DNA of 64,000 nucleotides, from the NCBI GenBank assembly GCA_963779755.1, contig CAVZZO010000001.1, positions 1,376,001-1,440,000 of the forward strand, given 5' to 3'. This document shows, piece after piece, positions 4,273-20,227 of this stretch (the first letter of the stretch is position 1; each line of letters opens with the position of its first letter). Position numbers and translations under genes: made by a program. This DNA comes from an uncultured Gemmatimonadales bacterium. Its GTDB lineage: Bacteria; Gemmatimonadota; Gemmatimonadetes; Gemmatimonadales; GWC2-71-9. Under the pieces are notes generated by a model. It did not search any database, had not been told where the DNA came from, and saw nothing but the letters and a program-made list of their open reading frames with translations.

Positions 4273-5484
4273 GTGAAACGAAGGAATACGCTGGGGCTGA
4301 TCTGTGCAGCGGGCATGGTGGCCGCCATGCTCCCCGGCTGCCGGGGCGAACCGCAGCGGGTCGCGCCCGGCCGCCTCCAGGTGCTGGTGGACAGCCTGCG
4401 CCCCCAGGTGGAGCGGGTGACCGGCCTCCAGTTCAAGGGTCCCATCCAGTCCGCCATGCAGACCAAGGACCAGGTCCGCTCCTACCTGCTGCGCCGGTTC
4501 GACGAGGAGATCCCGCCGGCGAAGCTCACAGGCATCGAGGACGCCTACCGGCTCTTCGGGCTCATCCCCGATACGCTCGACCTGCGCGGGCTGCTGCTCG
4601 ATCTCTACACCGAGCAGGTGGCGGGCTACTACGACCCCGAGAGCAACACGCTCTTCGGTGTCGAGGGCGCCGATCCCGCGCAGCTGAAGCTGGTCCTGGC
4701 GCACGAGCTGGTGCACGCGTTGCAGGATCAGTATACCAACCTCGATTCGCTGCTCTCGCTGAAGGGCGACGACGACCGTCAGTCGGCGGCCCAGGCCATT
4801 CTGGAGGGCCAGGCCAACCTGGCCTCGCTCCAGCTCATCGCTCCCGAGCGGGCCAACGATCCCGCCTTCTGGGACACCTTCCTCGACGCCCTGCGGCAGC
4901 AGCAGTCCACCATGCCGGTCTTTGCCCGCTCACCTCTGGTGGTGCGGGAGGACCTGCTCTTTCCCTACGTGGCCGGCGCGGAGTTCATGCGCTGGTGGGC
5001 CACCTCGCCGCTCAAGGATACCGTCCCCTACGGGCCCCGGATGCCGGTCTCGACCGAGCAGATCCTGCATCCCGAGCGGTATCTCAATGGCGATGAGCCG
5101 GACGGCTTGCGCTTCGCCGATACCGATTCGGCCGAGTATGACAATGTCCTGGGAGAGCTGGAGCTGCACGTGCTGGACGCGGTGCTCAAGGGCAGTGAGG
5201 ATGTCGTGACCCGCACCGTCCCCGGCTGGGGCGGCGACCGGTTCCGGGTCTATGCGACCCCCAATGGCCCCGCGCTGGTGTGGTATACCGTGTGGGACAG
5301 TCCGGTCTATGCCCAGCGCTTCGAGCTGGGCCTGGGAGCCCGGATGGCGATGCGCTCGCGGCAGGGCTATCGCACGGCGATGGATACGCTGACGGTGGAC
5401 AGCCTGCCCGCCGTACGCATCACCGTGGCGCCGGCCGGGTGGACGCGGTGGGGTCGGGAGCCCGGGGTGGAGCTCCGTCGGTAG
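4273..5484 (+). CDS. Putative zincin-like lipoprotein
   Basis: Lipobox-like LPGC, HELVHALQDQ (HExxH), downstream LEGQA. Confidence 0.7.
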   Translation: MKRRNTLGLICAAGMVAAMLPGCRGEPQRVAPGRLQVLVDSLRPQVERVTGLQFKGPIQSAMQTKDQVRSYLLRRFDEEIPPAKLTGIEDAYRLFGLIPDTLDLRGLLLDLYTEQVAGYYDPESNTLFGVEGADPAQLKLVLAHELVHALQDQYTNLDSLLSLKGDDDRQSAAQAILEGQANLASLQLIAPERANDPAFWDTFLDALRQQQSTMPVFARSPLVVREDLLFPYVAGAEFMRWWATSPLKDTVPYGPRMPVSTEQILHPERYLNGDEPDGLRFADTDSAEYDNVLGELELHVLDAVLKGSEDVVTRTVPGWGGDRFRVYATPNGPALVWYTVWDSPVYAQRFELGLGARMAMRSRQGYRTAMDTLTVDSLPAVRITVAPAGWTRWGREPGVELRR

Positions 5485-5496
5485 GACAGCTCCGGA

Positions 5497-5644
5497 ATTC
5501 ACCGCGAAGACGCCAAAGGCGCGAAGGTTGCGAAGTCATGTTGTGTGGGTCTATCCGTCGGGACCAGGCTGCGCCTGACACCCTGGGAGGGCCGCCAACA
5601 GAACACAGATTACTCTTCGCGCCCTTCGCGTCTTCGCGGTGAAT
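5497..5644. repeat. MITE-like inverted repeat element, 30-bp arms
   Basis: ATTCACCGCGAAGACGCCAAAGGCGCGAAG (5497-5526) vs CTTCGCGCCCTTCGCGTCTTCGCGGTGAAT (5615-5644), 28/30 complementary. Confidence 0.9.
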
Positions 5645-5647
5645 CAG

Positions 5648-7213
5648 TCATCGCCCCAACATGACGTTGATCCCGAACGCGATCGCGCCCACGATCGCTC
5701 CCAGCACGTAACCCAGGTTCACGATCAGGTCCAGCTCCTTCTGCGTCACGTTGCGGACGATCTCCTCCATCCGCTGCGTGCTGAACCCCAGCACCTTCTG
5801 CTCCACCATCTCCTGGACCTGGATCTGCCCCACCAGCATGGGGATCTGGCTCTGCACCCAGCCCCAGGCGGCCTCCACCAGATCCTGCCTGACCCGTGCC
5901 GAGCGCTCCTCGCCCAGCCAGCCGGCGGGGCGGCCCAGCGGGCGGTCGAGCAGGTGGTTCGCCACCGAGCGTACCGTCTCCTCCACCCACTGCTTCCCCC
6001 GCGGCCCCGCGGCGGCATCGGCAATGAGCCGGGCCAGCGTCTCGGCCGGGATGGCGTCCAGCACGTCTCCCCAGGTCCGTTGCTCGGCGGCGTGCAAGGC
6101 GCGGTCGACCGTCTGGCCGATCACCCGCCGGGTACCGGCATCGCGCGCCAGCTTTACCGCCCAGTCGCCCAGGGTCTTCTCCAGATCGGCCCGGCGTTGC
6201 TCGCCCAGCCGGCGGAATCGCTCGGCCAGGGGAATGCGCAGGAAGCTCACCACCGCATCGTTCACCGCGCGGGCAACCTGGGCCTCGATGGCCGGACTCT
6301 TCAGCTCGAAGCCCAGCCGGTCCAGCCCCCGCCTCTCGAACCCGTCCACCAGCCGCGCGATGGTGCGGTCGGTCACCACCATCTTGGCAAGGATGCGCTC
6401 GTGCAGCAGCAGATCGCGCACCGTATGGTCGAACGCGTCGCGCAGGGCGCCCTCGACCTGCCGCCGGGTATCGGGGTTCTGCAGCACCGAGCCGAGCCGC
6501 TCCACCGCGACGGGGAGATAATCGGTGATCCCCTGCTCGACGGCCCCCACCAGCCCGGGCGGCAGCCGCTCCAGCAGGGGCCGGTCGTCGCGTGCCAGGC
6601 TGTCCATCTGCTGCGTGATGAACCCGCGTACCGCGTTCTCCAGTGCCTCGCCCTCGGCCATCTGCCCCACCCACTCGTCCACCTTGCGGGCCAGTGACTC
6701 CCGGCGGCCGGCCGTCAGCACCTCGCCCAGCGGCCGGTCGCCCAGCTCGGCGCGGAGCTTCTCCTGCCAGACCTCCACCCGGGCGACGAAAGCAGGGCCG
6801 GCCGTGTACTCCGCCAGCCGCCGGGCCACTACATCGCTCAGTTCGGGCAGCGCCTGCTCGACGGTCTCCAGCAGGGACGGGCTCAGGCCCTGGCGGAGGG
6901 GGCCGCGATCGCGCTCCAGCAGGTCGTTCAGGAAACCGCCGATGGCCCGGGCGAAGGTCTCATAGACGCTCGGCGTGCTGAGCCGCTGGGCCAGGTCCTC
7001 CGGCGTCAGCAGCCGCTCGCCCACCGCCTTGCCCACGCTCTTCGCCAGACGGGCCTTGTTCTTGGGGATGGCGCCATGAAACCGGAACGGCCCGAACCCG
7101 CGCCGGTCGTGGGGATGAAACAGCATCCAGACGGCGACGGCGTTGGTGATGCCGCCGGACAAGGCACCGACCAGGACGGTGACGATGCCGGTGACGAGGA
7201 GCTGGTGGTTCAT
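5648..7213 (-). CDS. DUF445 family membrane protein
   Basis: N-term GGITNAVAVWMLFHP..GAIPKNK, C-term ELDLIVNLGYVLG; start ATG 7213. Confidence 0.85.
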   Translation of the reverse strand: MNHQLLVTGIVTVLVGALSGGITNAVAVWMLFHPHDRRGFGPFRFHGAIPKNKARLAKSVGKAVGERLLTPEDLAQRLSTPSVYETFARAIGGFLNDLLERDRGPLRQGLSPSLLETVEQALPELSDVVARRLAEYTAGPAFVARVEVWQEKLRAELGDRPLGEVLTAGRRESLARKVDEWVGQMAEGEALENAVRGFITQQMDSLARDDRPLLERLPPGLVGAVEQGITDYLPVAVERLGSVLQNPDTRRQVEGALRDAFDHTVRDLLLHERILAKMVVTDRTIARLVDGFERRGLDRLGFELKSPAIEAQVARAVNDAVVSFLRIPLAERFRRLGEQRRADLEKTLGDWAVKLARDAGTRRVIGQTVDRALHAAEQRTWGDVLDAIPAETLARLIADAAAGPRGKQWVEETVRSVANHLLDRPLGRPAGWLGEERSARVRQDLVEAAWGWVQSQIPMLVGQIQVQEMVEQKVLGFSTQRMEEIVRNVTQKELDLIVNLGYVLGAIVGAIAFGINVMLGR

Positions 7214-7228
7214 GGGTTGGGGAGTATA

Positions 7229-7260
7229 GGCGGCAGGGCGGCAGGGCGGCAGGGCGGCAG
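7229..7260. repeat. (GGCGGCAG)x4, left arm
   Basis: Four perfect 8-bp units. Confidence 0.95.
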
Positions 7261-7350
7261 GTGGGCCGACCCGGACGCCTCCGCGGGCTTCTGAAACGCC
7301 CAGCGCTCGAATGATGACAGTCGAGAGGCAGGCGCTGAATACCGTGGAGC

Positions 7351-7776
7351 ATGCCAAACGCCACCTCCAAGCCCTCGAGGCTCAGTTCCTTTCAGCGCCT
7401 CACGGCCTGGCGCGCCTGCCACGAGCTGACTCTCGCGATATATAGGCAATCCGACTCATGGCCCGAGACCGAGCGCTATGGCCTGATCTCGCAGGTCCGG
7501 CGGGCGGCCGTGTCGTGCTGCTGCAACATTGCGGAGGGCAGCGCAAAGCGTGGGAGTGCCGAGTTCAGGCGTTTTCTCGACATGGCCCTCGGTTCACTGG
7601 CCGAGATCGAGGCTCTGTTTCTCATCGCGAGAGATCTTGGGATTCTCCAGAAGACCACCTGGGGAGAACTTGAGGCTTTCCGCGACCACGCTGGCAAATT
7701 GGTTTGGGGTCTGTACCTGGCTGTCGGGAGGCGGACAACGCCGCGGCCTGCCAAGCCCAGAACGGAGAAGGGATAA
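7351..7776 (+). CDS. Four-helix bundle protein (23S rRNA IVP / TIGR02436-like)
   Basis: L.AW...H.L...IY...WP..ERYGL.SQVRRAA.S...NIAEG...EF.RFL..A.GSL.E signature. Confidence 0.9.
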   Translation: MPNATSKPSRLSSFQRLTAWRACHELTLAIYRQSDSWPETERYGLISQVRRAAVSCCCNIAEGSAKRGSAEFRRFLDMALGSLAEIEALFLIARDLGILQKTTWGELEAFRDHAGKLVWGLYLAVGRRTTPRPAKPRTEKG

Positions 7777-7815
7777 GGGAACGGTCTGGCACGCCGGGCT
7801 CTTGTGCAGCATTCT

Positions 7816-7895
7816 CCGCCTTGCCGCCTTGCCGCCTTGCCGCCTTGCCGCCTTGCCGCCTTGCCGCCTTGCCGCCTTGCCGCCCTGCCGCCTTG
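7816..7895. repeat. (CCGCCTTG)x10, right arm, inverted relative to 7229-7260
   Basis: Ten 8-bp units, one variant CCGCCCTG. Confidence 0.95.
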
Positions 7896-7922
7896 CTCCT
7901 AACCCCATGTCCGCGCTATAAT
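7893..7922 (+). promoter_or_regulatory. Putative sigma70 promoter of ffh operon
   Basis: TTGCTC-N18-TATAAT, 9 nt before ATG 7932. Confidence 0.6.
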
Positions 7923-7931
7923 TCCCGGCTT

Positions 7932-9320
7932 ATGTTCGAGGAGCTTTCGTCCAAACTGACCTCCACCCTGGCCCGCTTCACGGGCCGGGGTGTTCTGACC
8001 GAAGAGGCAGTCCGGGAGGGCCTGCGGGAGATCCGCCGGATCCTGCTCGAGGCGGACGTCAGCTTCGACCTCACGAGGGAATTCCTCGAACATGTGCAGG
8101 CCAAAGCGGTTGGGGCGGACGTGCTCAAGAGCGTCCGGCCCGGCCAGCAGCTGGTCAAGGTCGTCTACGACGAGCTGGTGGCCATGCTGGGCGAGACGCG
8201 CGCCCCGCTGGCCGTCGCCTCGGTGCCGCCCACCCTCATCCTGGTGGTGGGGCTCCAGGGCTCGGGCAAGACGACCACCGTGGCCAAGCTGGCCCGGCGG
8301 CTCAAGCAGGAGCAGAAGGCGCCCTTCGTGGTGGCGGCCGACGTCTACCGTCCCGCCGCCGAAGAGCAGCTGAAGCAGCTGGCGAAGCAGGTGGAGGTCG
8401 GTGCCTTCGGCATGACGGATTGGGTGGGGCAGGGTGGACCTGCCGTCCTGCCGTCTTCCCGTCCTGCGGCGGGGTCGGTGGATGTGGTGGGGCTCGTCCG
8501 CTCGGGCATGGAGGCCGCGGGCAAGGCCCGGGCCCGGACGGTCATCGTGGATACCGCCGGCCGGCTGCAGATAGACGAAGAGATGATGCACGAGCTGCAG
8601 GGCCTGAAGGGCGCCCTGCGGCCGCAGGAGATCCTCCTCGTGGCCGACGGCATGACCGGCCAGGATGCGGTCCGCATCGCCCGCGGGTTCCACGAGGCGC
8701 TGGGCATCACCGGGGTGGTGCTCACCAAGATGGACGGCGACAGCCGCGGCGGCGCGGCGCTTTCCATCTATGGCGTCACCCACGCGCCCATCAAGTTCGT
8801 GGGCACCGGCGAGCGGGTGGATGCGCTGGAGCCGTTCCACCCCGAGCGGATGGCGGGGCGCATTCTCCAGCAGGGGGATATCCTCTCGCTGGTGGAGAAG
8901 GCCCAGGCCACGGTGGACGAGGCCGAGGCCGAGAAGCTGGCGAAGAAGGCGGGCAGCAAGAAGGGGCTCGATCTGGGCGACTTCCTCACCGCCATGAAGC
9001 AGCTCCAGAAGATGGGGCCGCTCAAGAACGTGCTGGGGATGCTGCCGGGGGTGAACCCGGCGATGCTCAAGTCGGCCAACGTGGACGAAAAGCGGATCCG
9101 CCACATCGAGGCGATCGTGCTCTCCATGACGCCCAAGGAACGGGCCGACCCCGACGTCCTGAACGGATCGCGCCGGCTGCGCATCGCCAAAGGCTCGGGC
9201 CGGACGGTGCAGGAGGTAAATCAGCTGCTGAATCAGTTCAAGCAGATGAAAAAGTTCATGAAGGTGGCCGGGCGTCCCGGCATGAAGCTCCCGCTGGGGG
9301 GGATGTTCCCCGGGATGTAA
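7932..9320 (+). CDS. ffh: Signal recognition particle protein
   Basis: LLEADV, GLQGSGKTTT, DTAGRL, TKMDGD.RGG, M-domain SMTPKER..SRRLRIAKGSG. Confidence 0.97.
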   Translation: MFEELSSKLTSTLARFTGRGVLTEEAVREGLREIRRILLEADVSFDLTREFLEHVQAKAVGADVLKSVRPGQQLVKVVYDELVAMLGETRAPLAVASVPPTLILVVGLQGSGKTTTVAKLARRLKQEQKAPFVVAADVYRPAAEEQLKQLAKQVEVGAFGMTDWVGQGGPAVLPSSRPAAGSVDVVGLVRSGMEAAGKARARTVIVDTAGRLQIDEEMMHELQGLKGALRPQEILLVADGMTGQDAVRIARGFHEALGITGVVLTKMDGDSRGGAALSIYGVTHAPIKFVGTGERVDALEPFHPERMAGRILQQGDILSLVEKAQATVDEAEAEKLAKKAGSKKGLDLGDFLTAMKQLQKMGPLKNVLGMLPGVNPAMLKSANVDEKRIRHIEAIVLSMTPKERADPDVLNGSRRLRIAKGSGRTVQEVNQLLNQFKQMKKFMKVAGRPGMKLPLGGMFPGM

Positions 9321-9372
9321 CCGGCAGTCTGGACCGCGGCGCCACCGGCGCCGCCTGCGACAGGAAGAGCTA

Positions 9373-9639
9373 ATGGCAACTCGCATTCGTCTGCGCCGCG
9401 TGGGCCGCAAGGGCGTGCCCCTCTATCGGATCGTCGTCGCCGACCGGGAAAGTCCCCGGGACGGGCGCTTCATCGAGGTCATCGGGAGCTACAACCCGAA
9501 GTCCGAGAAGGCCCCGGTGACGGTCGATCAGGACAAGGCGCGGAACTGGCTGGCCAAGGGCGCGACCCCCACGGAAACCGTGGCATCGCTGCTCAAGAAG
9601 GCCGGCGTCTTTCAGCCGGCGGCCGCGGCCTCGGAGTGA
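9373..9639 (+). CDS. rpsP: 30S ribosomal protein S16
   Basis: RIRLRRVGRK..YRIVVAD..SPRDGRFIE. Confidence 0.97.
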   Translation: MATRIRLRRVGRKGVPLYRIVVADRESPRDGRFIEVIGSYNPKSEKAPVTVDQDKARNWLAKGATPTETVASLLKKAGVFQPAAAASE

Positions 9640-10169
9640 CCGCACCCCGCCTGCTGGTCGTGGGGCGGCTGCGCAAGCCCCACGGCCTGAAGGGCGAGAT
9701 GACGGTCTTTCCGCTCACCGACGCTCCCGAAACGGCGCTGGCCGCCGGACGGACGCTGCAGCTGATGGACCTGGAAGGCGCGATGGTGGGCGAGCCGGTG
9801 GTGATCGAACGCAGCCGGAGCTACCATCGCGAGTGGCTGGTGAAGTTCCGCGGGCACGACGACCGCGAAAGTCTCGAAGCCCTGCGCGAGCGGTTTCTCG
9901 CCGCGCCGGCCGACCAACTGGCGCCGCTGCAGCAGGACGAGGTCTACCTGCATGAGCTGGCCGGCTTCGCGGTCCGTTCCGAGGACGACGCCCCGCTGGG
10001 GGTCGTGAGCGATGTCTACGACGTCCCCTCGGGGCTCATGATCGAGGTGCAGGGGCCGAAGCGCGAGTTTCTTCTGCCCTACCGGCGCGAGTTCATTCGC
10101 GCGGTCGATCGCGATGCCCGGCGTCTGGTGGTGGCGCTCCCCGAAGGGCTGCTGGACCTCGAGAGCTGA
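9636..10169 (+). CDS. rimM: Ribosome maturation factor RimM
   Basis: VGRLRKPHGLKGE; conserved operon position. Confidence 0.93.
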   Translation: MTAPRLLVVGRLRKPHGLKGEMTVFPLTDAPETALAAGRTLQLMDLEGAMVGEPVVIERSRSYHREWLVKFRGHDDRESLEALRERFLAAPADQLAPLQQDEVYLHELAGFAVRSEDDAPLGVVSDVYDVPSGLMIEVQGPKREFLLPYRREFIRAVDRDARRLVVALPEGLLDLES

Positions 10170-10183
10170 CCCCGGGAGCGGGC

Positions 10184-10870
10184 ATGCTGGCGATCAACGT
10201 GGTCACGCTCTTCCCGGAGGTCTTCGAGCCCTGGCTCCGGACCAGCATCCCCGGGCGGGCGGCCGAGGCGGGGCTGGTGCGCTACCGGCTGGTGCAATTG
10301 CGGAGCTTCACGCACGACCGGCACCAGACGGTGGACGACTACCCCTACGGCGGCGGGGCCGGCATGGTGCTGAAGCCGCAGCCGTTCTTCGAGGCGGTGG
10401 AGTCGCTGAAGCCCGCGGGGCCCGTGGTCCTGATGTCGGCACGGGGGAAGCCCTTCGGGCATGCCGATGCAGTACGGTATGCGGTGGCGCCGGAGTTGAC
10501 GCTGCTCTGCGGCCACTACAAGGATGTGGACCAGCGGGTGGCCGACTTCCTGGCCACGGAGGAGCGGTCGGTGGGCGATGCGGTCCTTTCCGGGGGCGAG
10601 CCCGCGGCGCTCTGTGTACTGGATGCCGTGGTGCGGCTGCTGCCGGGCGCCCTGGGCGACCACGAAAGCGCCAGCGGCGACTCGCATTACGACGGGCTGC
10701 TGAGCCCGCCCAGCTATACCCGCCCGCCGGAATACCGGGGGCACGGCGTGCCCGAGGTGCTGCGCTCGGGCAACCACGCGGAGATCGACGCGTGGCGCCA
10801 GGCGGAGGCCCGGCGCCTCACGCGCGAGCGGCGGCCCGATCTGTGGCGGGCCTGGGACGAGCAGGAGTAG
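10184..10870 (+). CDS. trmD: tRNA (guanine-N1)-methyltransferase
   Basis: VTLFPE, VDDYPYGGGAGM, LSGGE, YTRPPEY, SGNH. Confidence 0.96.
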   Translation: MLAINVVTLFPEVFEPWLRTSIPGRAAEAGLVRYRLVQLRSFTHDRHQTVDDYPYGGGAGMVLKPQPFFEAVESLKPAGPVVLMSARGKPFGHADAVRYAVAPELTLLCGHYKDVDQRVADFLATEERSVGDAVLSGGEPAALCVLDAVVRLLPGALGDHESASGDSHYDGLLSPPSYTRPPEYRGHGVPEVLRSGNHAEIDAWRQAEARRLTRERRPDLWRAWDEQE

Positions 10871-10940
10871 CATTACAACACCGGCCGGCGCTCAGCGCCG
10901 GCGACATTGACGGCGCGATACCGGCGCGGAGGATACGGCT

Positions 10941-11288
10941 ATGGAGCGGTTGGCGGAGTTGAACCGGGAGAACCTGCGGGCGGACTTTCCCGCCTTCCAG
11001 CCGGGTGACACGGTGCGGGTGGCGGTTCGGGTCCGGGAAGGCGACAAGGAACGTCTCCAGGCCTTCGAAGGTGTCTGCATCGCGCGCCGGGGCGGCGGGC
11101 TGCAGGAGTCGTTCACGGTGCGCAAGGTGTCGGCCGGCGTCGGGGTGGAGCGCATCTTCCCCCTGCACAGCCCGTCCATCGCCTCCATCGAGCTGGTGCG
11201 GCGCGGCCGGGTCCGCCGGGCCAAGCTCTACTACCTGCGGGCGGTGAGTGGCAAGGCCGCCCGGATCCGGGAGAAGCGCGAGAACTGA
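10941..11288 (+). CDS. rplS: 50S ribosomal protein L19
   Basis: [32 protein letters not shown]. Confidence 0.97.
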
Positions 11289-11291
11289 GCC

Positions 11292-11960
11292 GTGCGGCGC
11301 CAGCGCCCCTCCCTCGCGCGCGAAGCCGAGGTCTGGGCGTCGGAACGTCTGCTGGTCGGTGTGGATGAAGTCGGCCGCGGCCCCCTGGCTGGTCCAGTGG
11401 TGGCCGCGGCCGTCGTCTTTCCTCCCCACGTCACCCGCCTGTATGGCCTGCGCGACAGCAAAGTCCTGACCGCCCGCCAGCGCGAGAAGCTGGCCGGCCG
11501 CATTCGCCAGCGGGCCCTGGCGCTGGCCGTGGGCGCCGCGTCCTGCCGCGAGATCGACCGCCTCAATATCCGGGTCGCCAGCGCGCTGGCCATGCGCCGC
11601 GCGGTCCGGCGGGTGCTCGTCCTTCTGCGCCGGGCCGAGCCGCCGGCCGCGCTGGCCGATCCCGCCGCCCGCTACCAGGTCCTGATCGACGGCCTGCCGC
11701 TGCCCGAGTTGGGCCTGCCGCACGACGCCCTGGTGGACGGCGACGCGCTCTGCGACTCCATCGCCGCCGCCGCCGTCATCGCCAAGACGGTGCGCGACCA
11801 TCTCATGGCGCGCCTGGCGCAGCGCTACCCCGGCTACGGCTGGGAGTCCAACATGGGCTACGCCACCGCCGATCACTGCGCGGCGCTGGGCCGGCGCGGC
11901 CCCACCCGGCACCACCGCCTCAGCTTCGAGCCATTGAGCCAGCTCCGGCTGCCGCTGTAG
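11292..11960 (+). CDS. rnhB: Ribonuclease HII
   Basis: GVDEVGRGPLAGPV, LRDSK, IAAAAVIAKTVRD. Confidence 0.95.
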   Translation: MRRQRPSLAREAEVWASERLLVGVDEVGRGPLAGPVVAAAVVFPPHVTRLYGLRDSKVLTARQREKLAGRIRQRALALAVGAASCREIDRLNIRVASALAMRRAVRRVLVLLRRAEPPAALADPAARYQVLIDGLPLPELGLPHDALVDGDALCDSIAAAAVIAKTVRDHLMARLAQRYPGYGWESNMGYATADHCAALGRRGPTRHHRLSFEPLSQLRLPL

Positions 11961-12093
11961 AAGAACCGCGACACGGAGGCACGGAGGCACGGAGCAAGCG
12001 AGCTACTACGGCGGCGGCGCCTACGGGGTTATGTATTTAGAACTTATGTTCCTCCGTGTCTCCGTGTCTCCGTGTCTCCGTGTCACAGTTCTT
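11961..12093. repeat. Inverted 8-bp tandem repeat element (CACGGAGG / CTCCGTGT)
   Basis: AAGAACCGCGACACGGAGGCACGGAGGCACGGAG ... (CTCCGTGT)x4 CACAGTTCTT. Confidence 0.9.
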
Positions 12094-12107
12094 CCAGGAG
12101 ATCAGCT

Positions 12108-14558
12108 ATGAGACGTTTTCTCGTTATTGCTCTGATCCTCGCCCTCCCCGCCCCGCTCGCCGCCCAGTCCAATGCCGAGCGGATGGCCAACGACTGGTAT
12201 ACCCGCTCGCATGATTACGATCTGGTGCACCAGCGCATCCAGCTCCGCGACATCAACTGGGATTCCACCAGCTTCAAGGGCCGGGTCACCAGCACGCTCG
12301 TTGCCCTGCGGCCCGGGCTCGATTCGGTCATCCTCGACGCCGGGCACCTGCTGAGCATCCAGAGCGTCGTCACCCCGGCCGGCAGGCCGCTCAACTTCAG
12401 CACCTCGGGCGATACCCTGGTGGTGCACCTCGCCCGCCCCGCCGCGTTCCACGACACGGTCCGATTCAGTATCGCCTACGACGCCAGGATCCAGAACGGC
12501 CGCGGCCTCACCTTCATCGACGCCGACACCGGTGCCAACTGGCGGCCGCAGCAGATCTGGAGCCAGGGCGAGGACGACAACAACCACGACTGGTTCCCCA
12601 CCTACGACTTCCCCAACGACAAGATGTCCTGGGAGATGATCGTGACCCTGCCCACGCGGTTCAGTGTGGTCTCCAACGGGAAGCTGGTGAGCGACCGGCC
12701 GGCGGAGAAGGGGCAGCATACGGTGACCTGGAGCGAGACGGAGCCGAGTGCCACCTACCTGGTCTCGCTCATCGTCGCGCCCCTGGTCAAGGTGCACGAT
12801 ACCTGGCAGGGGAAGCCGGTGGATTACTACGTCTACGCCAGGGACAGCACCCTGGCCTGGCGCCTCTTCCATGTGACGCCGGACATGATCCAGACCTATT
12901 CCGATCTCACCGGCATCAAGTACCCGTGGGCCAAGTATGCCCAGACCACCGTCGCGGATTTCTTCGGCGGCATGGAGAACGTGAGCGCCACCACGCTGGT
13001 GGACTGGCTGCCCGACGCCACCGCCTACCTCGACCGGCCCTGGTACCAGTACATCCTCATTCCCCACGAACTGGCCCACCAGTGGTTCGGCGACTACGTC
13101 ACCACCGAGAACTGGGCCAACATGTGGCTCAACGAAGGCTTCGCCGAGTTCATGCCGGGGCAGTACTGGGCGAAGAAGCTGGGCCGCCATGCGGAAGAGG
13201 ACTACTACCTGGACGAGTACAACTCGTTCATGCGCATCGACCAGCGCCGCCGGATGCCGCTGGCCTCGCTGGGCAGCAACAACATCTATCCCAAGGGCGC
13301 CCTGGTGCTGGAGATGCTGGAGCACTACCTGGGCCCGCAGGCGTTCTGGGCGTCCGTCAACCGGTACCTGAAGGACCACGCCTTCGACAACGCCACCAGC
13401 GACGACCTGCGCCAGGCCGTGCTGGATGCCACCGGACAGAACCTCGACTGGTGGTGGCAGCAGTGGGTCTACGATGCGGGCTATCCCGAGTTCACGGTCG
13501 GCGCGCAGTACGACAGCGCGGGCCACGCGCTGGTCCTGGATGTGAAGCAGACCCAGGTGGACACCAGCTCGGCCGACAGCACCGGGCTGCGCTATGGCAC
13601 GCCCCAGGCCTTCCGCATGCCCGTCACGGTGCGGGTGGGCACCGCCGGGGGCGAGGTGACCCGGACCTTCCAGCTGGCACATCGTGAGGATACCCTGCGG
13701 GTGGAACAGGTGCAGTCACCGCCCACCATGGTGATCTTTGACGACAACAATCAGATCCTGAAGAAGCTCACCTTCGACCAGCCCAGTGCCTGGCTGGCGC
13801 AGCAGCTGAGCCACGATCCCGATCTGTGGAACCGCTGGTGGGTGATCGGCCAGCTGGCCGCGCGTGACAGCGATACGGTTGCCGTGAACGCCCTGGCCGA
13901 CGCGGCGACCGGCGCGGATTACTACCTCACCCGGGTGCAGGCCATCGGCGCGCTGGCCGACCTGGCGGGCGAGCGCGCCATGCCCACGCTTACCCAGGCG
14001 CTGCGCGACACCTCGGCGACGGTGCGAGGAGCTGCGGTGGAAGCCATGGGGCAGATCCCCGGGGGCCACGCCGTGGCGCTGCTCAAGCGGGTGCTGGCCG
14101 GCGATTCCAGCTACGCGGTGCGCGCCGCCGCTATCGGCGCGCTGGCGGTGGCGGACTCCGCCAATCGCCGGGAATACATCCAGCAGGGGCTCAGCACGCC
14201 GTCCTATCGCGGTGCCCTGCAGAACGCCGCGCTGGGCGTCATCGCCCGCAGCGGGGATACCAGCTACGTCGAGCCGGTGGCCCATCTCCTGGGCGACGTG
14301 CAGAACGCCGCCTTCGTGCTGGCCAGCTTCGCCAACCGGGGGAACGCCCGGGCGCTCGACGTGCTGGTCAAGAACCTGGACAGTCCGCGTTCCACCGTCC
14401 GCAATTCCGTCCTCCAGGCCTTCCGCTTCGTGGTGCAGCCCAAGGTAGGGCTGCCCGCGCTCCAGGCCGCGGTGGACAGCCTCTCGCCCCGGGTGAAGGA
14501 GCAGGTGCAGGGGGTGCTCAAGCAGATGGAACAGCGGCAGGCGGGTAACGGGAGGTAA
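12108..14558 (+). CDS. Secreted M1 family aminopeptidase with C-terminal HEAT-like repeats
   Basis: Signal peptide, GGMEN, HELAHQWFG-x-WLNEGFA, IYPKG; RBS AGGAG. Confidence 0.9.
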   Translation: MRRFLVIALILALPAPLAAQSNAERMANDWYTRSHDYDLVHQRIQLRDINWDSTSFKGRVTSTLVALRPGLDSVILDAGHLLSIQSVVTPAGRPLNFSTSGDTLVVHLARPAAFHDTVRFSIAYDARIQNGRGLTFIDADTGANWRPQQIWSQGEDDNNHDWFPTYDFPNDKMSWEMIVTLPTRFSVVSNGKLVSDRPAEKGQHTVTWSETEPSATYLVSLIVAPLVKVHDTWQGKPVDYYVYARDSTLAWRLFHVTPDMIQTYSDLTGIKYPWAKYAQTTVADFFGGMENVSATTLVDWLPDATAYLDRPWYQYILIPHELAHQWFGDYVTTENWANMWLNEGFAEFMPGQYWAKKLGRHAEEDYYLDEYNSFMRIDQRRRMPLASLGSNNIYPKGALVLEMLEHYLGPQAFWASVNRYLKDHAFDNATSDDLRQAVLDATGQNLDWWWQQWVYDAGYPEFTVGAQYDSAGHALVLDVKQTQVDTSSADSTGLRYGTPQAFRMPVTVRVGTAGGEVTRTFQLAHREDTLRVEQVQSPPTMVIFDDNNQILKKLTFDQPSAWLAQQLSHDPDLWNRWWVIGQLAARDSDTVAVNALADAATGADYYLTRVQAIGALADLAGERAMPTLTQALRDTSATVRGAAVEAMGQIPGGHAVALLKRVLAGDSSYAVRAAAIGALAVADSANRREYIQQGLSTPSYRGALQNAALGVIARSGDTSYVEPVAHLLGDVQNAAFVLASFANRGNARALDVLVKNLDSPRSTVRNSVLQAFRFVVQPKVGLPALQAAVDSLSPRVKEQVQGVLKQMEQRQAGNGR

Positions 14559-14646
14559 GGCGGTAAGGCGGGAAGACGGGAAGGTGGGAAGAGGGAAAGG
14601 GGAATGGGGAACGGGCCGTTTCCCTGTTCCCCATTCCCGTTTCCCT
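14554..14646. repeat. 8-bp array followed by 7-bp-unit inverted hairpin
   Basis: GGTAAGGC GGTAAGGC GGGAAGAC GGGAAGGT; then AGGGAAAGGGGAATGGGGAACGGG / CCCTGTTCCCCATTCCCGTTTCCCT. Confidence 0.8.
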
Positions 14647-14664
14647 TTAGTTTTCCCGCTCTCC

Positions 14665-14737
<73 letters not shown>

Positions 14738-14743
14738 TTAGAG

Positions 14744-14823
14744 GGCGGCAAGACGGCAAGACGGCAAGACGGCAAGACGGCAAGACGGCAAGGCGGCAGG
14801 ACGGCAAGACGGCAGGACGGCAG
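14744..14823. repeat. (GACGGCAA)x10 with variants, no nearby partner arm
   Basis: Ten 8-bp units G[AG]CGGCA[AG] ending in GGCAGGTGG. Confidence 0.95.
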
Positions 14824-15002
14824 GTGGACGAAACCAGAACGGTCCTCCGGGTGTGGGGGCCGCCTTTCCATTCTCCTACTGCCCTCCAACCCCTGTAGGT
14901 GTAAACCCTTACTTGCCGCCGCTGTCCTGGATGCTACAGTAGATGTGTACGTTCAGCAGAACCCTGCTGCGACAGACCACCGCATAGCCCGTCTCGCTGC
15001 AC

Positions 15003-15860
15003 ATGACTGACACGCGAACCCGCCGCCGCGGCAACCGCGCAAACCGGGATATTCCATCGCCTGTCGAGGCCGGAGATGGAGCGCAGCTGGCGCTCGACAA
15101 CGCGCACCGTCACTTCGAGGCAGCCGGCATCCTGCGCGATGCTGAGCTCTACGCTTCCGCCCAGAGCCATCTGGTGCTGGCCACAGAGGAACTGGCCAAG
15201 GCAACCGCCCTGGCCACGGTCGCGGCCGGATTCCGCTGGCCGCCCGGCCACCTGGTGGAAGTCCTGTTCCATCGCGGTCCCCGGAACGCCCTGACCTTCG
15301 GCGATGTGCTGCTGGTCAGCATGCTGGGCGTGGCGCGGCGGGCGGCAGAGGTGGTGCAGGAGCGGAATGGCGTCCAGCGCTTTGTCCCTGAGCTGTGGAA
15401 CGAGTTCAAGGCCGAATTCGAGCGCGAGAGCCGCGAGCTGACGGAGGGGTCGGGGGCTTCCGATCTCATGCAGAAGCTGCTGGGCTGGGTTCGGGAGGCC
15501 TCGAGCCGCAGAGACCAGGGCTTCTATGTTGACTTCACGGCGCGATCAGGCTGGTGGGACCCGGGCAGCATCACCGCCGGGCAGCTGGCCCGGGACTACG
15601 AAATCGTAAAGGGATTGCTCGCGTTCCGCGGCCGGCAGATTACCGAAATGCTCGACCTGCAGCCCCAGCTCGATGAAACCGCCGCTACCCGGTTCACTGC
15701 CCTCCTCCAGGAGGCCAACTCTCTGGAGTTCGAGGAGATGCTGGCGCGCTTCATCTCCGTCGCCGAAGCCGATCCGGCTGCCATCTTCCTGCTCGCGCGC
15801 CACAGCTCGGACGCCGGTGACTGCGAAGGCGCGCTGCCCGAATCCCGGCAGGAGGCCTAG
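15003..15860 (+). CDS. AbiV family (HEPN-like) abortive infection protein, putative
   Basis: LDNA.RH..AA.IL....Y..A....VLA.EELAK and RRDQGFYVD resemble the AbiV pattern. Confidence 0.7.
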   Translation: MTDTRTRRRGNRANRDIPSPVEAGDGAQLALDNAHRHFEAAGILRDAELYASAQSHLVLATEELAKATALATVAAGFRWPPGHLVEVLFHRGPRNALTFGDVLLVSMLGVARRAAEVVQERNGVQRFVPELWNEFKAEFERESRELTEGSGASDLMQKLLGWVREASSRRDQGFYVDFTARSGWWDPGSITAGQLARDYEIVKGLLAFRGRQITEMLDLQPQLDETAATRFTALLQEANSLEFEEMLARFISVAEADPAAIFLLARHSSDAGDCEGALPESRQEA

Positions 15861-15866
15861 GCCGGC

Positions 15867-16247
15867 CTACGGTTCCCGGAACCCCACCACGCTCCACCTC
15901 AGCCGTCCCGCCGCGGGGTCATGGGCGAACATCACCCAGCCCCGCTTGCTTCCGTGGCCGGTCAGATAGCTCAGGTGCACCAGGCCATGCTCGGCCTCTC
16001 CCTCACCCTCCAGGGTCACCCGCACCCGCAAATCCTCCGCCGTCACGTCGCCTGCGTTCCTGACGGTGACCGGTAACGCGTAGCGCCCCGCGCGGGGCTC
16101 AGGCTGGCCCAATTCCACCTGAATCCGCGGCGGTATAGCGTCCGACCGTGCCATTTCGTATACCAGCACCCCGGCGCAAGCCAGCACCAGCGCTCCGCCC
16201 GCAACGAGCACCAGCCATTCGAGCCAGTTCTTGCCTTGATCAGCCAT
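15867..16247 (-). CDS. TIGR02588-like membrane-anchored protein
   Basis: KNWLEWLV TM, VTVRNAGDVTAEDL, F..DP; coupled to TIGR02587-like gene. Confidence 0.7.
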   Translation of the reverse strand: MADQGKNWLEWLVLVAGGALVLACAGVLVYEMARSDAIPPRIQVELGQPEPRAGRYALPVTVRNAGDVTAEDLRVRVTLEGEGEAEHGLVHLSYLTGHGSKRGWVMFAHDPAAGRLRWSVVGFREP

Positions 16248-17083
16248 CAGACCTGCAGCAGCAGTCGGCCCGCCGAGGAGCCGAGGGAAGCGGGAAGGCC
16301 GAGGACCACTACCTCGGCAATGGCCCGGTGCAGCGGCAGCTGCGTGAGGCGGCCGAAGAACCACAGCATGAGGGCGGAGACGAGCAGTGCCGCGGTGTAC
16401 ATGATCACGATACCCGCCGCCGCATCGTCGGGCCCGCTGGCCTGGCGGACCCAGCGTTGGTGCCCGTGGAAATCGGCCCAGTAGAGTACGCCCCCGCCGA
16501 TAAGAATCGACAACAGCATGATGAGCAGGATCTGGCCGGGCGCCGCCTGGGTCCCCACGATGACGATCTCCTGAGTCGGGGCGACATTGGAGGCGACGAA
16601 CACGGCCCCGCAGAGCGAGAGCACGAACTGACCCAGAAAGCGGGGAGTATCCTCCTCGCGGCGGCTCCCCTGATCCTGTTGCCCCTGCCGGCTGCCCAGT
16701 TGCGCTTTGCCCACCGAGACGCCGATCGCCACCATCATCGAGGCGATCACCACGATGCCGACCGCTTCCCGGATGCCGCTCGAGGCGTTGATCCGGCCCA
16801 TGAGCCACAGCGCGAGTGCCGCCACCACCATGCCCAGCCCCATCTCTTCCACACTCTCGGCCATGACATCCAGCAGGGTGTGGGACCGGCGCAGGCCCGC
16901 ATAGGCGTTGTAGCCCAGCAGGAGGAGGAAAGTGGCCCCCATATAGCCCAGCAATGGGCCCGGGGCCATGGTCGCTCCCGTCTGCCACAACTCCATGGTG
17001 TAGAGCAGGGGAATGCTGAACAGCAGGCCGCCCGCCATGGCGCGGGCGTATTCACTGAGGGACTGCCGGACCGGCTTGGTCAC
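16247..17083 (-). CDS. TIGR02587/DUF2391 family membrane protein
   Basis: AGGLLFSIPLLYTMELW, NVAPTQEI, LGLPASLG; GTG start with GGAGGAG RBS. Confidence 0.8.
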   Translation of the reverse strand: MTKPVRQSLSEYARAMAGGLLFSIPLLYTMELWQTGATMAPGPLLGYMGATFLLLLGYNAYAGLRRSHTLLDVMAESVEEMGLGMVVAALALWLMGRINASSGIREAVGIVVIASMMVAIGVSVGKAQLGSRQGQQDQGSRREEDTPRFLGQFVLSLCGAVFVASNVAPTQEIVIVGTQAAPGQILLIMLLSILIGGGVLYWADFHGHQRWVRQASGPDDAAAGIVIMYTAALLVSALMLWFFGRLTQLPLHRAIAEVVVLGLPASLGSSAGRLLLQV

Positions 17084-17267
17084 GCCGCTGCTCCTCCCCT
17101 GGGTTCCTCTGCCTCCGGTATTCTCGCGGTGCAACGATACCGGCGCGTTGATGCCTGTCACAGAGCGGCGCCTTGCAGAGCACCACCCTGCCCGGTGCCT
17201 GGCTCAGCCGCCCACTCCCCGCCCGCTCCCCAATCGAGTAGCCTTGGAGGTCCCAACCAGGCCTCTC

Positions 17268-18224
17268 ATGCGCAATGTTCGCCTCCGCCGCTTCGCCGGC
17301 TACTTCTTCGCCCTGGCTGCGGGTACCGTCTGGGGCACCACCGGCCCGCTCTCGACCGCGCTCTACGGCCAGGGGGCCGACATTACGGGCATCGGCTTCT
17401 GGCGGGTGCTGCTGGGAACCGCGGGGCTGGTCGCTTACGGTGCCCTCTTCTACCGAGACATGTTCCGCATCGACTGGCGGGGATTCCTGCTGGTGGGTCT
17501 GGGCGGCGGCGCGCTGGTGGCGCTCTTCGAGGTGGCCTACCAGTTCGGTATCGCGGGCGCCGGGGTGGCCGGGGCCGCCGCGTTGCTGTATACCGCGCCC
17601 GTGCTGGTGGCGATCCTCGCCCTGCCGCTTCTGGGCGAAAAGCTGACCAGCATCCGGCTGATCCTGGCCGTGGTGGTCATGGTCGGCGCCGCCCTGACCG
17701 TCACCGGCGGGCGGCTGGGCGCCAGTGGCGCGGGGCCCGCCACTCTGGTGCAGGGCGTGGTGGGCGGGCTGCTGGCCGCGGCCAGCTACGCCGGGACCAC
17801 CATTCTCGCCCGCTTCGCCGTGCCGCGCTACGGCACGCTGCGGGTGCTGTTCCTCGAGATCGCGGGTGGGGCGCTGCTCCTGGGCATCATCCTGCCGCTC
17901 GCTGGGCGGCCGCCGGCGGCTCCCACGGCAACTGAAGGCTGGATCTATCTCGCGGCCCTCGCCGCCGGCCCGGTGCTGCTGGCCAATTTCTTCTTCTTCG
18001 CCGGCGTGAAGCGGATCGAGGCCGCACCCACCGCGGTGGCGGCCACCATTGAACCGGTGGTGGGGGCGCTCCTCGCGCTCATCCTTTTCAGCCAGCGGCT
18101 CAGCCCCGTCGGGTGGCTCGGGCTGGCTCTGGTGGTGGGAGGGGTAGCGGCGGGCTACTGGCTGGAGGGCTCGGGAGAGCCGGATGTGACGCCCGTCCTC
18201 CCGGAGGCGGCCGAACGGATATAA
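17268..18224 (+). CDS. EamA/DMT family transporter
   Basis: About 10 TM, WGTTG, LLYTAP, EPV motifs. Confidence 0.88.
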   Translation: MRNVRLRRFAGYFFALAAGTVWGTTGPLSTALYGQGADITGIGFWRVLLGTAGLVAYGALFYRDMFRIDWRGFLLVGLGGGALVALFEVAYQFGIAGAGVAGAAALLYTAPVLVAILALPLLGEKLTSIRLILAVVVMVGAALTVTGGRLGASGAGPATLVQGVVGGLLAAASYAGTTILARFAVPRYGTLRVLFLEIAGGALLLGIILPLAGRPPAAPTATEGWIYLAALAAGPVLLANFFFFAGVKRIEAAPTAVAATIEPVVGALLALILFSQRLSPVGWLGLALVVGGVAAGYWLEGSGEPDVTPVLPEAAERI

Positions 18225-18303
18225 CGTCAGAGAAGACCCACGCAGGCCCGGGCGAGTCGGACCGCCTGGCCGGCCGCCCGCCTGCTCACCGCGCGGAGGG
18301 CCT

Positions 18304-18702
18304 GTGGTCAACGCTGTTCTGTTCGCCCTGTCGGTCGGGTTCTGCCTCACGTTCCTGCTGGTGGGCGTCTTCCGCTGGCGCCACCCGCGCCATCCGGCCA
18401 TGTGGAAGGCCGCCGTCTTTCTCTTCGCCATCCTCTTTCTGGTAGTCCTGGTCGCCGGAGTCTGGCAGCCCAATTACGGGTCGCCCTGGGGGCAAGGGTA
18501 CTGGGTCACGTTCGTGCTGGTCGGCTCCGTCGCGGCCATGTTTCTCGCCGCCGCCCCGCCGGAGCGGCGTCCGCCGCCGGAAGCGACAGCCGAGGTGGCC
18601 GAGTACCACGAGAAGGAGATTTCCGGCACCGTCTTCGGCGTGTTCTTCTGGATGCTGCTTCTTTCGCTGGGCCTGGTGCTGGGAATCCGGCTGATACACT
18701 AG
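18304..18702 (+). CDS. Hypothetical membrane protein (about 4 TM)
   Basis: Hydrophobic segments, GC3-biased codons. Confidence 0.65.
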   Translation: MVNAVLFALSVGFCLTFLLVGVFRWRHPRHPAMWKAAVFLFAILFLVVLVAGVWQPNYGSPWGQGYWVTFVLVGSVAAMFLAAAPPERRPPPEATAEVAEYHEKEISGTVFGVFFWMLLLSLGLVLGIRLIH

Positions 18703-18836
18703 GACGGCAGGACGGCCCTGAAGGACCTCCTCGCGGCCTCTTCGTTGGAGGGCCGCTCGGTCGCAGGACGGCAGGACGGCCCTAAAGGACTTCCTCGCGG
18801 CTCTCTATTGGAGGCCGCTCGGTCGCAGGACGGCAG
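18701..18836. repeat. Two 62-64 bp direct repeats with internal palindrome, interleaved with GGACGGCA units
   Basis: Units 18701-18764 and 18765-18826; hairpin GCGGCCTC..GAGG(G)CCGC. Confidence 0.85.
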
Positions 18837-18880
18837 GGGAAGGTGCCCACGCTCCGCGCCTGTTGGACGCCGATCTTCGC

Positions 18881-18970
18881 TCAGCCATCAGCCATCAGCC
18901 ATCAGCCATCAGCCATCAGCCATCAGCCATCAGCCATCAGCCATCAGCCATCAGCCATCAGCCATCAGCC
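18881..18970. repeat. (TCAGCCA)x~13 heptamer array
   Basis: 90 nt perfect 7-bp periodicity. Confidence 0.97.
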
Positions 18971-18984
18971 CTCCGTCCTCCGCC

Positions 18985-19016
18985 CTTCCCGCCTTCCCGC
19001 CCTGCCGCCTTCCCGC
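18985..19016. repeat. (CTTCCCGC/CCTGCCGC)x4, right arm
   Basis: Four 8-bp units, same family as 7816-7895. Confidence 0.8.
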
Positions 19017-19053
19017 CTATTTTCCCCCCATCCTTCTTCAGGATCAGTCACTC

Positions 19054-19911
19054 TTGGCCACGACGATCTGGCTCGACGGGAAGTGGTGCACCCGCGAGGA
19101 TGCGGCGGTCTCCGTTTTCGACCATGGTCTGCTCTATGGCGACGGCGTCTTCGAGGGCATCCGGGCCTATGAGGGGCGGCTGTTCCAGCTGCAGGACCAT
19201 CTGAAGCGCCTCTATGCTTCGGCCCGCTCCATCCTGCTGACGCCGCCGTTGTCGCTGGAGGAGATGACCTCGGTGACCGAGGAGGCGTTCCGGCGCTCGG
19301 GGCTCAGGGACGCCTACCTGCGACACATCGTCACCCGCGGTGTCGGCGATCTGGGCCTGAGTCCGCGCAACTGCCCCCGGCCGACGGTGATCATCATCGT
19401 GGACCAGATCAGGCTCTGGCCTCCAGAGCGCTACGAGCGGGGGCTGGACGTGATCACCGCGGCCACGCCCATTCCGCACCGTGAGGCGCTGTCGCCCCGG
19501 GTGAAGTCGCTCAACTATCTCTGCCACATCATGGCCAAGGTGGAGGGCATCAACGCCGGGGCAGACGAGGCCCTGATGATGGATCCGAACGGCATGGTGG
19601 TGGAAGCCAGCGGGCAGAATCTCTTCGTCGTGAAAGACGGCGTGCTCACCACCCCGCCCGCCTGGGCCGGCATTCTGCGGGGCATCACGCGCGACGCCGT
19701 CATGGGCCTGGCCCTGGAAGCCGGGCATCAGGTGGTGGAGCAGCCCCTGAACCGCTATGACATCTACACCGCCGATGAGGCCTTCCTGACCGGGACCGCC
19801 TCGGAAGTGGTGGCTATCCGGTCGCTGGACGCCCGGATCATCGGAGATGGCCGCCGTGGGCCCGTCACCCGGGCCCTGGCGGAGGCCTTCGCCCGGCTGG
19901 TCCGCAGCTGA
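19054..19911 (+). CDS. ilvE: Branched-chain amino acid aminotransferase
   Basis: DHGLLYGDGVFEGIRAY, VKSLNY, LRGITRD, ADEAFLTGT; TTG start approximate. Confidence 0.92.
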   Translation: MATTIWLDGKWCTREDAAVSVFDHGLLYGDGVFEGIRAYEGRLFQLQDHLKRLYASARSILLTPPLSLEEMTSVTEEAFRRSGLRDAYLRHIVTRGVGDLGLSPRNCPRPTVIIIVDQIRLWPPERYERGLDVITAATPIPHREALSPRVKSLNYLCHIMAKVEGINAGADEALMMDPNGMVVEASGQNLFVVKDGVLTTPPAWAGILRGITRDAVMGLALEAGHQVVEQPLNRYDIYTADEAFLTGTASEVVAIRSLDARIIGDGRRGPVTRALAEAFARLVRS

Positions 19912-19923
19912 AGCCGGGCGGCC

Positions 19924-19953
19924 TTGACCGCCCGCGCGCGTGGCCTGCATATT
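19924..19953 (+). promoter_or_regulatory. Putative sigma70 promoter
   Basis: TTGACC-N18-CATATT upstream of two small ORFs. Confidence 0.5.
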
Positions 19954-19993
19954 GCCCGTCCACCCCAGGTACCCTCAGGCTTGGAGTTCCCCC

Positions 19994-20227
19994 ATGGCAT
20001 GGCGCAGAGTCTCGCACGGGAATACCGTGTACGACGTCATGGCTGCCGCCGAACGAACCGGACCATCCGCTGCCTGGCGGCTGGTGCTTGCTTTCAGGAC
20101 CAGCGGCCGCCGGGCAGTGTGGGCCCCGTATCCGCTCATCTCGAGTTCACGATCGTCCCTGTTTGCGCAGGCCGACCAGCTGTCGGACGAGAAAATCAGC
20201 GCCGTCCTCGCCGATCACCTGTCCTAA
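19994..20227 (+). CDS. Small hypothetical protein (77 aa)
   Basis: GGAG RBS, globular-looking sequence. Confidence 0.6.
   Translation: MAWRRVSHGNTVYDVMAAAERTGPSAAWRLVLAFRTSGRRAVWAPYPLISSSRSSLFAQADQLSDEKISAVLADHLS

Follow-up and report, generated by a model that had tools for sequence, protein, structure and literature searches.

Between the divergent genes for a DUF445 protein (positions 5648-7213, minus strand; PF04286, 113 bits; start codon at 7213) and for Ffh (ffh, SRP54; 7932-9320, plus strand; TIGR00959, 544 bits) lies a short cassette, in which the gene of a 141-residue IVP-type four-helix-bundle protein (7351-7776, plus strand) is enclosed by two inverted tandem arrays of octamers. 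Positions are those of the window, the whole 64,000-nucleotide stretch of DNA that was analysed, which corresponds to G000:C1:1376001-1440000 in a genome of 4.23 Mb with 68% GC and a completeness of 97%. The left arm (7229-7261, plus strand) is a G-rich array of 4.1 copies of GGCGGCAG with 100% matches in TRF, and the right arm (7816-7896, plus strand) is a C-rich array of 10.1 copies of CCGCCTTG with 97% matches, whose ninth unit (7880-7887) is CCGCCCTG, the exact complement of the left unit. The inverted-stem score of the locus is 68, compared with a median of 24 in 768 control genes of 300-600 nt from the same genome, and the arms fold together on the sense strand (-352.5 kcal/mol, z -2.92) as well as on the antisense strand (-336.2 kcal/mol, z -2.73). 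The inverted arrays, the divergent DUF445 and ffh flanks, the membership of the IVP/Avd-like family and the single position that distinguishes the units of the two arms, giving G-U pairs in the sense RNA and A-C mismatches in the antisense (5 G-U, 0 A-C in the alignment of the locus), had all been proposed in a first-pass annotation and are borne out by these data and by the domain and fold matches given below.

The limits of the cassette can be approached from its flanks. A TATACT at 7223-7228 (minus strand), 9 nt before the ATG of the DUF445 gene, is its likely -10 box as read from the sequence, and is likely host DNA abutted by the left arm. On the other side, a likely ffh promoter spans 7893-7922 (plus strand; TTG at 7893, TATAAT at 7917-7922); its TTG overlaps the last repeat unit of the right arm, and a TTG...AACCCC...GCTA pattern recurs, by eye, before ffh in cassette-free relatives. 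This promoter is likely host sequence as well and would mark the right limit of the cassette. A strict scan for promoters and terminators returned 0 sites, including none at either putative promoter. Extra complementarity beyond the arrays, around the C-rich tracts close to both ATGs, resembled a longer terminal repeat, but this reading was dropped, as cassette-free relatives also have the right-hand tract before ffh. With DUF445 and ffh as its flanks, the cassette lies outside any rRNA gene, and no Rfam family was found over 7229-7896, the sole above-threshold match in 5000-20000 being a tRNA gene (14665-14737). Of note, -10-like boxes about 9 nt before an ATG occur at 7223-7228 and 7917-7922 and also at loci L003, L007 and L009, a spacing that suggests leaderless or near-leaderless messages in this genome.

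The protein scores 97.7 bits against PF05635 (cut-off 33.8) and 89.6 bits against TIGR02436 (cut-off 24), and its predicted structure consists of four helices (pLDDT 92). The best fold match is XCC0516 (2gsc; rmsd 0.7-1.0 Å, 39% identity), followed by BT_0352 (2rld) and then by Avd (4dwl), the latter match being weak (E 0.014, TM 0.86 on the target, 9% identity). Avd is described as a pentameric basic barrel, all five subunits of which contact an RNA stem-loop (10.1101/2023.10.23.563531). Based on this and on the five chains present in both 2gsc and 2rld, the IVP protein would probably form a basic homopentameric ring like XCC0516 and Avd. The IVP protein is under purifying selection, with pN well below pS in 11 of the 12 pairs for which values could be computed (14 were tried). 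Nine IVP matches are found in this genome and are scattered over the IVP tree, no near-identical IVP cassettes were found at different sites of the genome, and the copy before ffh appears to be an old resident, not a recent arrival.

The architecture seen at this locus is common to the IVP family across many phyla. IVP genes are present in 34 of the 41 genomes of the order and absent from 7, and nearly all IVP loci of the present genome have, by eye, inverted arms with units of 7, 8, 9 or 11 bp. The first-pass annotation had advised comparing the flanks of PF05635/TIGR02436 genes with those of control genes, and the outcome is in its favour: of 158 loci of the order, 134 were complete in domain and flanks, and 108 were kept after filtering to less than 80% identity; of these, 102 have an inverted stem of at least 30 and 93 one of at least 40, versus 91 and 11 of the 768 control genes, the top scorer among the latter being a GxxExxY gene (see below). 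Direct orientation reaches 30 in only 14 of the 108 loci. Arms of different loci pair with a median score of 22, compared with 56 for arms of the same locus, and the own partner ranks first out of 108 in 70 cases; unit sequence thus turns over from locus to locus while the arms stay matched. Among 66 loci from Acidobacteriota, Planctomycetota, Chloroflexota, Bacteroidota, Verrucomicrobiota, Proteobacteria and other phyla (80 sampled, 14 dropped for short flanks or redundancy), stems of at least 30 occur in 57 and of at least 40 in 39, with 2% of cross-locus pairs reaching 40. Viral contigs behave alike, with stems of at least 30 in 24 and of at least 40 in 17 of 26 loci (35 sampled, 9 dropped).

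The length of the repeat unit (7 versus 8-10) follows the protein tree. In the other phyla, 43 of the 47 periodic stems have a period of 7, and of the 102 stems of this order 27 are too weakly periodic for a call. In a quick tree of IVP proteins, one clade of 97 rows (SH-aLRT 99), to which the gene studied here belongs, has a period other than 7 in 38 of 40 cases, versus a period of 7 in 31 of 35 outside it, a contrast whose p-value is overstated, since the shift amounts to about one transition and kin are not independent. As unit length tracks the protein clade at many different sites, the arms travel with the gene. The median paired arm length is 4.25 units. In the other phyla and viral contigs, the dinucleotide AG is present in 46 and GA in 17 of 58 distinct heptamers, and heptamers with AG only outnumber those with GA only by 31 to 2 (shuffles 27.6 ± 3.3); the octamers of the present order do not have this bias (20 vs 20 of 31), and its heptamers have it only weakly (22 vs 16 of 32). 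In family f2 (L044, L048, L057, L084 and L088; genomes G031, G033 and G035), the IVP arms consist of long inverted repeats that show little or no periodicity.

The single-position difference between the arms had been read as a sign of an RNA-level element, and this part of the first-pass annotation did not withstand comparison across loci. In a strict alignment of 102 loci of the order, G-U pairs number 125 and A-C mismatches 133 (31 vs 39 loci, p 0.40), a loose alignment gives 214 vs 234, and the values are 42 vs 43 in the other phyla and 13 vs 15 in viral contigs, compared with 30 vs 2 in a control made of 58 tRNA acceptor stems. In co-oriented loci of the other phyla, G-U pairs number 8 and A-C mismatches 13. 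In the antisense subset, wobble leans towards the host strand (18 vs 7 loci; p 0.043 in one test out of five), a bias that is not repeated in 86 gene-less pairs (89 G-U vs 90 A-C on the host strand). We therefore reject the G-U wobble as an RNA signature.

Comparison of the DUF445-ffh site among relatives shows that the cassette is gained or lost as a block. Forty relatives were used, none of them of the same genus, so that the cassette junctions are placed only approximately; 34 have an ffh match, and the DNA upstream of it was compared in 20 (L010-L029). Four of these 20 have a bare divergent DUF445-ffh junction with neither IVP gene nor array, in agreement with the self-contained unit initially proposed, for which an empty site was the suggested check. 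In one relative, gene-less repeats lie at a DUF445-ffh junction, in another, gene-less arrays stand behind a different gene, and a third has an IVP gene before ffh whose product is 58% identical; the remaining 13 have other genes there, and the region before ffh is thus a hot spot. In L017 and L028, no IVP remnant was found before ffh.

Among 60 metagenome loci, the closest relatives of this IVP protein likewise lie before ffh and form one clade with it (SH-aLRT 89), yet both of their arms are built of other units (GCGGGGAA and GGCAGGGA types). In the ffh tree, the hosts of those metagenome loci form a group (support 100) and the present genome falls outside it. Since the IVP clade is shared but the ffh tree separates this genome from the other hosts, either the cassette is old and has been lost many times, or the ffh site received a related cassette on two occasions. 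Synonymous sites are saturated between this genome and those ffh-site relatives. For three close hosts (L047, L131 and L136), pS is about 0.72 in the IVP gene, higher than the value of about 0.40 in the adjacent ffh; codon bias accounts for part of this excess, and replacement of the cassette at the same site is possible.

The gene-bearing cassettes are accompanied by a far larger set of gene-less repeats. Our detector found 473 arrays in the genome, 452 of which have a period of 7-11, and 393 of the 452 are intergenic according to our own gene calls. An inverted partner lies within 700 nt in 216 of the 452, compared with 11 of 452 at 5 kb, and the G-rich arm comes first in 181. The partnered arrays merge into 177 elements, 152 of which have loops shorter than 150 nt; the pair at 11972-12084 is an example of this dispersed class. 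Convergent junctions hold 48 of 172 elements versus about 12% among all junctions, and 125 of the 199 element ends that face the 3' end of a gene lie within 10 nt of its stop codon. The loops of gene-less elements are mostly unique and do not form copy families, and a search for IVP remnants in the 177 elements gave hits solely in the 5 known cassettes.

The units of these arrays match those of the resident IVP genes in a genome-specific manner. Of the 442 arrays away from IVP genes, 192 differ by at most one mismatch from one of the 8 IVP units of this genome (one unit call, L007, is doubtful), versus 49 ± 23 of 442 for period-matched foreign sets, with a maximum of 122 in 200 draws. With 152 gene-less arm pairs and this match, the idea that the cassette is the gene-coding member of the gene-less repeats in the window stands. 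Octamer arrays are scarce in the IVP-less genomes of family f1: matches to four copies of an octamer have a median of 37 in 18 IVP-positive genomes and number 0, 0, 4, 0, 0 and 5 in 6 IVP-negative ones (p 0.0006, with kin not independent and several assemblies fragmented). Among IVP-positive genomes, array counts show no scaling with the number of IVP genes (rho 0.26, p 0.29), sampled DNA holds 12 arrays in 279 kb for IVP-positive vs 3 in 511 kb (per-genome p 0.13; 4 of 9 positive samples have zero), and in the other two families 10 of 15 IVP-positive genomes are without an octamer match.

Elements are also found within genes. A gene-less octamer hairpin of the same repeat family (8414-8467; TRF 8439-8467, period 8) extends a variable loop of ffh without breaking the frame and, in ffh alignments, adds 18 codons compared with most relatives; among 20 relatives, two have other insertions at this place, and the remaining 18 have no extra residues or three. 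The insertions in that same Ffh loop in L191 and L192 are independent. Four more in-gene elements are present in the genome. Repeat hairpins lie within called protein genes at G000:C1:961522-961581, C3:733078-733157 and C3:1583070-1583192, and in the first of these, unit variants are mirrored between the arms. Elsewhere in the window, the tRNA gene at 14665-14737 has an octamer hairpin on one side and a 9.6-copy octamer array on the other (14557-14822), and positions 18701-19018 hold a 64-bp tandem unit made of octamer repeats, then a 12.9-copy TCAGCCA array and then an octamer array. Arm pairs made of 7- and 8-mers enclose a REP-like palindrome (TGTCACCCTGAG...CTCAGGGTGACA) in their loops at G000:C1:409526-409680, C1:2031651-2031848, C1:2220090-2220388 and C3:1164525-1164675.

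No obvious enzyme accounts for this distribution. In the cassette, PF05635 is the only family matched and no transposase is found, and no RVT_1 (reverse transcriptase) match was found in the 97% complete genome. Of the three Y1 transposases encoded, two are IS200-like and the third has palindromes of its own; none of them has arms like those of the cassette. Target-site duplications show no excess (13.9% vs 14.1% in shuffled controls, n=137, with ends mapped roughly), and no recent copy of a gene-bearing cassette was found. The lack of transposase, reverse transcriptase and target duplication initially remarked upon is confirmed for the cassette, and a reverse transcriptase or an array-flanked transposase acting in trans was rejected, none being found.

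Our current working hypothesis, to which we would give a probability of about 0.45, slightly below even, is that the cassette is a REPIN/RAYT-like system without a transposase, in which a ring protein reads the periodic arms. It would be a small DNA unit devoid of an enzyme of its own, consisting of the IVP gene between inverted periodic arms and of hundreds of gene-less pairs. The ring would bind an arm as a single strand or a hairpin, with about one unit per subunit, and host repair or replication enzymes would copy or capture the bound hairpin into a new site, the IVP protein acting as a targeting scaffold and not as a catalyst. Slippage would alter the number of units, and template switching from arm to arm would keep the arms complementary on both strands. 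The only insertions to persist would be those at gene ends, between promoters or in loops that tolerate them. The oligomeric state, the binding, the copying and the direction of cause in this model are what we infer from the layout, the fold and the comparisons above.

The alternative that survives best, although we regard it as unlikely, is a regulator kept by the host: the ring protein would bind periodic repeats in transcripts and regulate its own mRNA by way of the arms, with the dispersed arrays serving as its sites at gene ends and in 5' leaders. TRAP, which binds triplet repeats in transcripts, provides a model. Such a role would suit a conserved protein with a long residence at one site, element ends close to stop codons, the oriented AG found every 7 nt in other phyla and the genome-specific match of units, and most Xanthomonas repeats are reported to be transcribed (PMC4692102). 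It is harder to reconcile with the patchy presence of IVP genes, with neighbours that have no common function, with wobble pairs devoid of strand bias and with several paralogues per genome that have different units; moreover, a binding site would not need inverted pairs. Next in rank, and improbable to our mind, the cassette may be a passive by-product, that is, an old hairpin-bounded passenger gene from IVS-like elements, with slippage and template switching alone making the arrays and the gene-less pairs being remnants after deletion of the gene. The lack of both enzyme and target duplication, the unique loops, the gene-less arms before ffh in two relatives and the strand-symmetric mismatches, which fit copying at the DNA level, would all be expected. 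Yet no IVP remnant is seen in the gene-less loops or before ffh in L017 and L028, the 152 gene-less pairs greatly exceed the 9 genes, the period of 7 and the AG are kept across phyla while other positions vary, and selection on the protein is left unexplained.

Quite improbably, the stem may close in the transcript and the IVP message be excised by RNase III as an intervening sequence of messenger RNA, as happens in 23S rRNA. The family of the protein and the stem-bounded layout are those of rRNA intervening sequences (PMC4990558), both neighbours run in the direction of the IVP gene in 19 of the 21 loci of other phyla for which both flanks could be called (by a cruder method), and the wobble excess on the host strand of the antisense subset points the same way. 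Against this, G-U pairs equal A-C mismatches overall, in the co-oriented loci and in the gene-less pairs, and the flanks are divergent at the DUF445-ffh locus. In the order, moreover, the IVP gene is mostly antisense to co-directional neighbours (35 loci), with 22 between convergent flanks, 7 co-oriented and 5 between divergent flanks (69 of 102 loci with both flanks called, using our own unvalidated codon model). Searches with PF00636, PF14622 and TIGR02191 gave no RNase III in this genome, nor was the enzyme found in 39 of the 40 relatives (genomes 72-100% complete; 8-9 of 14 controls positive), and the only hit lies on one contig of a fragmented assembly, so that RNase III is detected in 1 of 41 genomes versus 34 of 41 for IVP (9 of 14 controls). 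These observations, too, weigh against the RNA-level element originally suggested. The apparent lack of RNase III in the order is noteworthy by itself and may bear on the tolerance of long hairpins in transcripts. Finally, an orphan part of a retroelement, with the protein as the Avd-like helper of a reverse transcriptase that writes tandem units by repeated copying of a template, is highly improbable: the fold match to Avd would fit, but no reverse transcriptase was found in the 97% complete genome or in the cassette, and identity to Avd is 9% versus 39% to XCC0516.

By its tested features, the cassette is a member of the IVP family that is neither an rRNA intervening sequence nor a REPIN-RAYT, IS/MITE or DGR system. 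PMC4990558 describes rRNA intervening sequences with terminal inverted repeats, cutting by RNase III and an ORF proposed to serve mobility; the cassette shares with them the IVP/S23p family, a gene within terminal inverted repeats, a sporadic distribution and a mobility that is proposed without an explanation, but it lies between protein genes, has arms made of periodic arrays, gene-less counterparts and no wobble bias on the sense strand, and belongs to a lineage apparently devoid of RNase III. REPIN-RAYT systems (10.1101/2021.07.10.451892 and PMC3337134) comprise scattered intergenic inverted pairs tied to a conserved, rarely moving gene. The dispersed gene-less inverted pairs that match the gene's own flanks and the long vertical residence are reminiscent of this, whereas the cassette gene encodes a four-helix bundle instead of a Y1/HUH transposase, has several paralogues per genome, and has arms that are tandem 7-11-mers differing by locus and not conserved palindromes. 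Unlike IS and MITEs, the cassette has no transposase, its ends differ per locus, and no excess of duplications is seen at its roughly mapped ends. The four-helix fold is shared with Avd, but the cassette lacks the reverse transcriptase, the template and the variable repeat of a DGR.

Heptamer repeats resembling these arrays have been described before. For Xanthomonas campestris, PMC4692102 reports 70 convergent pairs of GGGAATC repeats, and in its supplement repeat 15 overlaps the start of XCC0516 with no comment in the main text; XCC0516 is the solved IVP structure that is the best fold match to our protein. TAACTGA repeat sets of unexplained origin are reported in Beggiatoaceae (PMC4679880). 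We find GGGAATC arms at IVP locus L002 and a TAACTGA unit in the 3' arm at L368. The repeats of Xanthomonas and Nostoc (PMC4692102) and of Beggiatoaceae (PMC4679880) are, like ours, intergenic 7-mers with a median of four units, often in convergent pairs and near stop or start codons; the proposals made there are G-quadruplex or translational roles, and many of our units cannot form quadruplexes. The terms "helix bundle", "intervening" and "S23" are all absent from the main texts of both papers. IVP genes also occur in cas loci, and IVP is homologous to Avd (PMC3936711 and PMC10053308). We found no paper on IVP genes within periodic inverted arms in a literature search that covered subscription journals little, and the element, real and general, is apparently unpublished.

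These results join two questions, the role of IVP/S23 proteins and the source of abundant 7-8-bp intergenic arrays, and suggest that a class of bacterial repeats that long lacked an explanation has its missing partner in the IVP protein. Tentatively, and with more doubt than for the cassette itself, IVP proteins may drive a widespread mobile DNA without transposase or reverse transcriptase, the ring reading the period of the repeat (7 for the majority of phyla and at least 8 for one clade of this order) and host enzymes copying the hairpin; rRNA intervening sequences would then derive from insertions into 23S rRNA, and the unexplained heptamer arrays known from Xanthomonas, cyanobacteria and Beggiatoaceae would be non-autonomous copies. 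The correspondence between unit length and protein clade makes the reading of the period directly testable. If mobility is true, genes would be dispersed without a dedicated recombinase, reshaping gene ends, promoters and the loops of essential proteins such as Ffh, and a hint would be gained at the role of Avd before its recruitment by DGRs. Enzyme-free mobility, if shown, would make the element categorically new.

A parallel set of repeat-flanked genes exists in the same genome. GxxExxY genes, with 12 matches in the genome and a product that we take to have a nuclease fold, are enclosed by inverted 8-9-mer arms of their own (CGCAGATTA and CGCGAAGA types), as at G000:C3:1465409-1465957, C1:2086479-2086829 and C3:1553769-1554110. 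Ten gene-less copies have in common a conserved loop of about 120 nt, for example at C1:695761-695932 and at positions 5500-5640 of the window. The pairing of GxxExxY genes with 8-9-mer arms suggests a family of such systems. At G000:C1:953128-953475, a RAYT-like Y1 transposase is flanked by TCGGCTGAAGCCGA palindromes.
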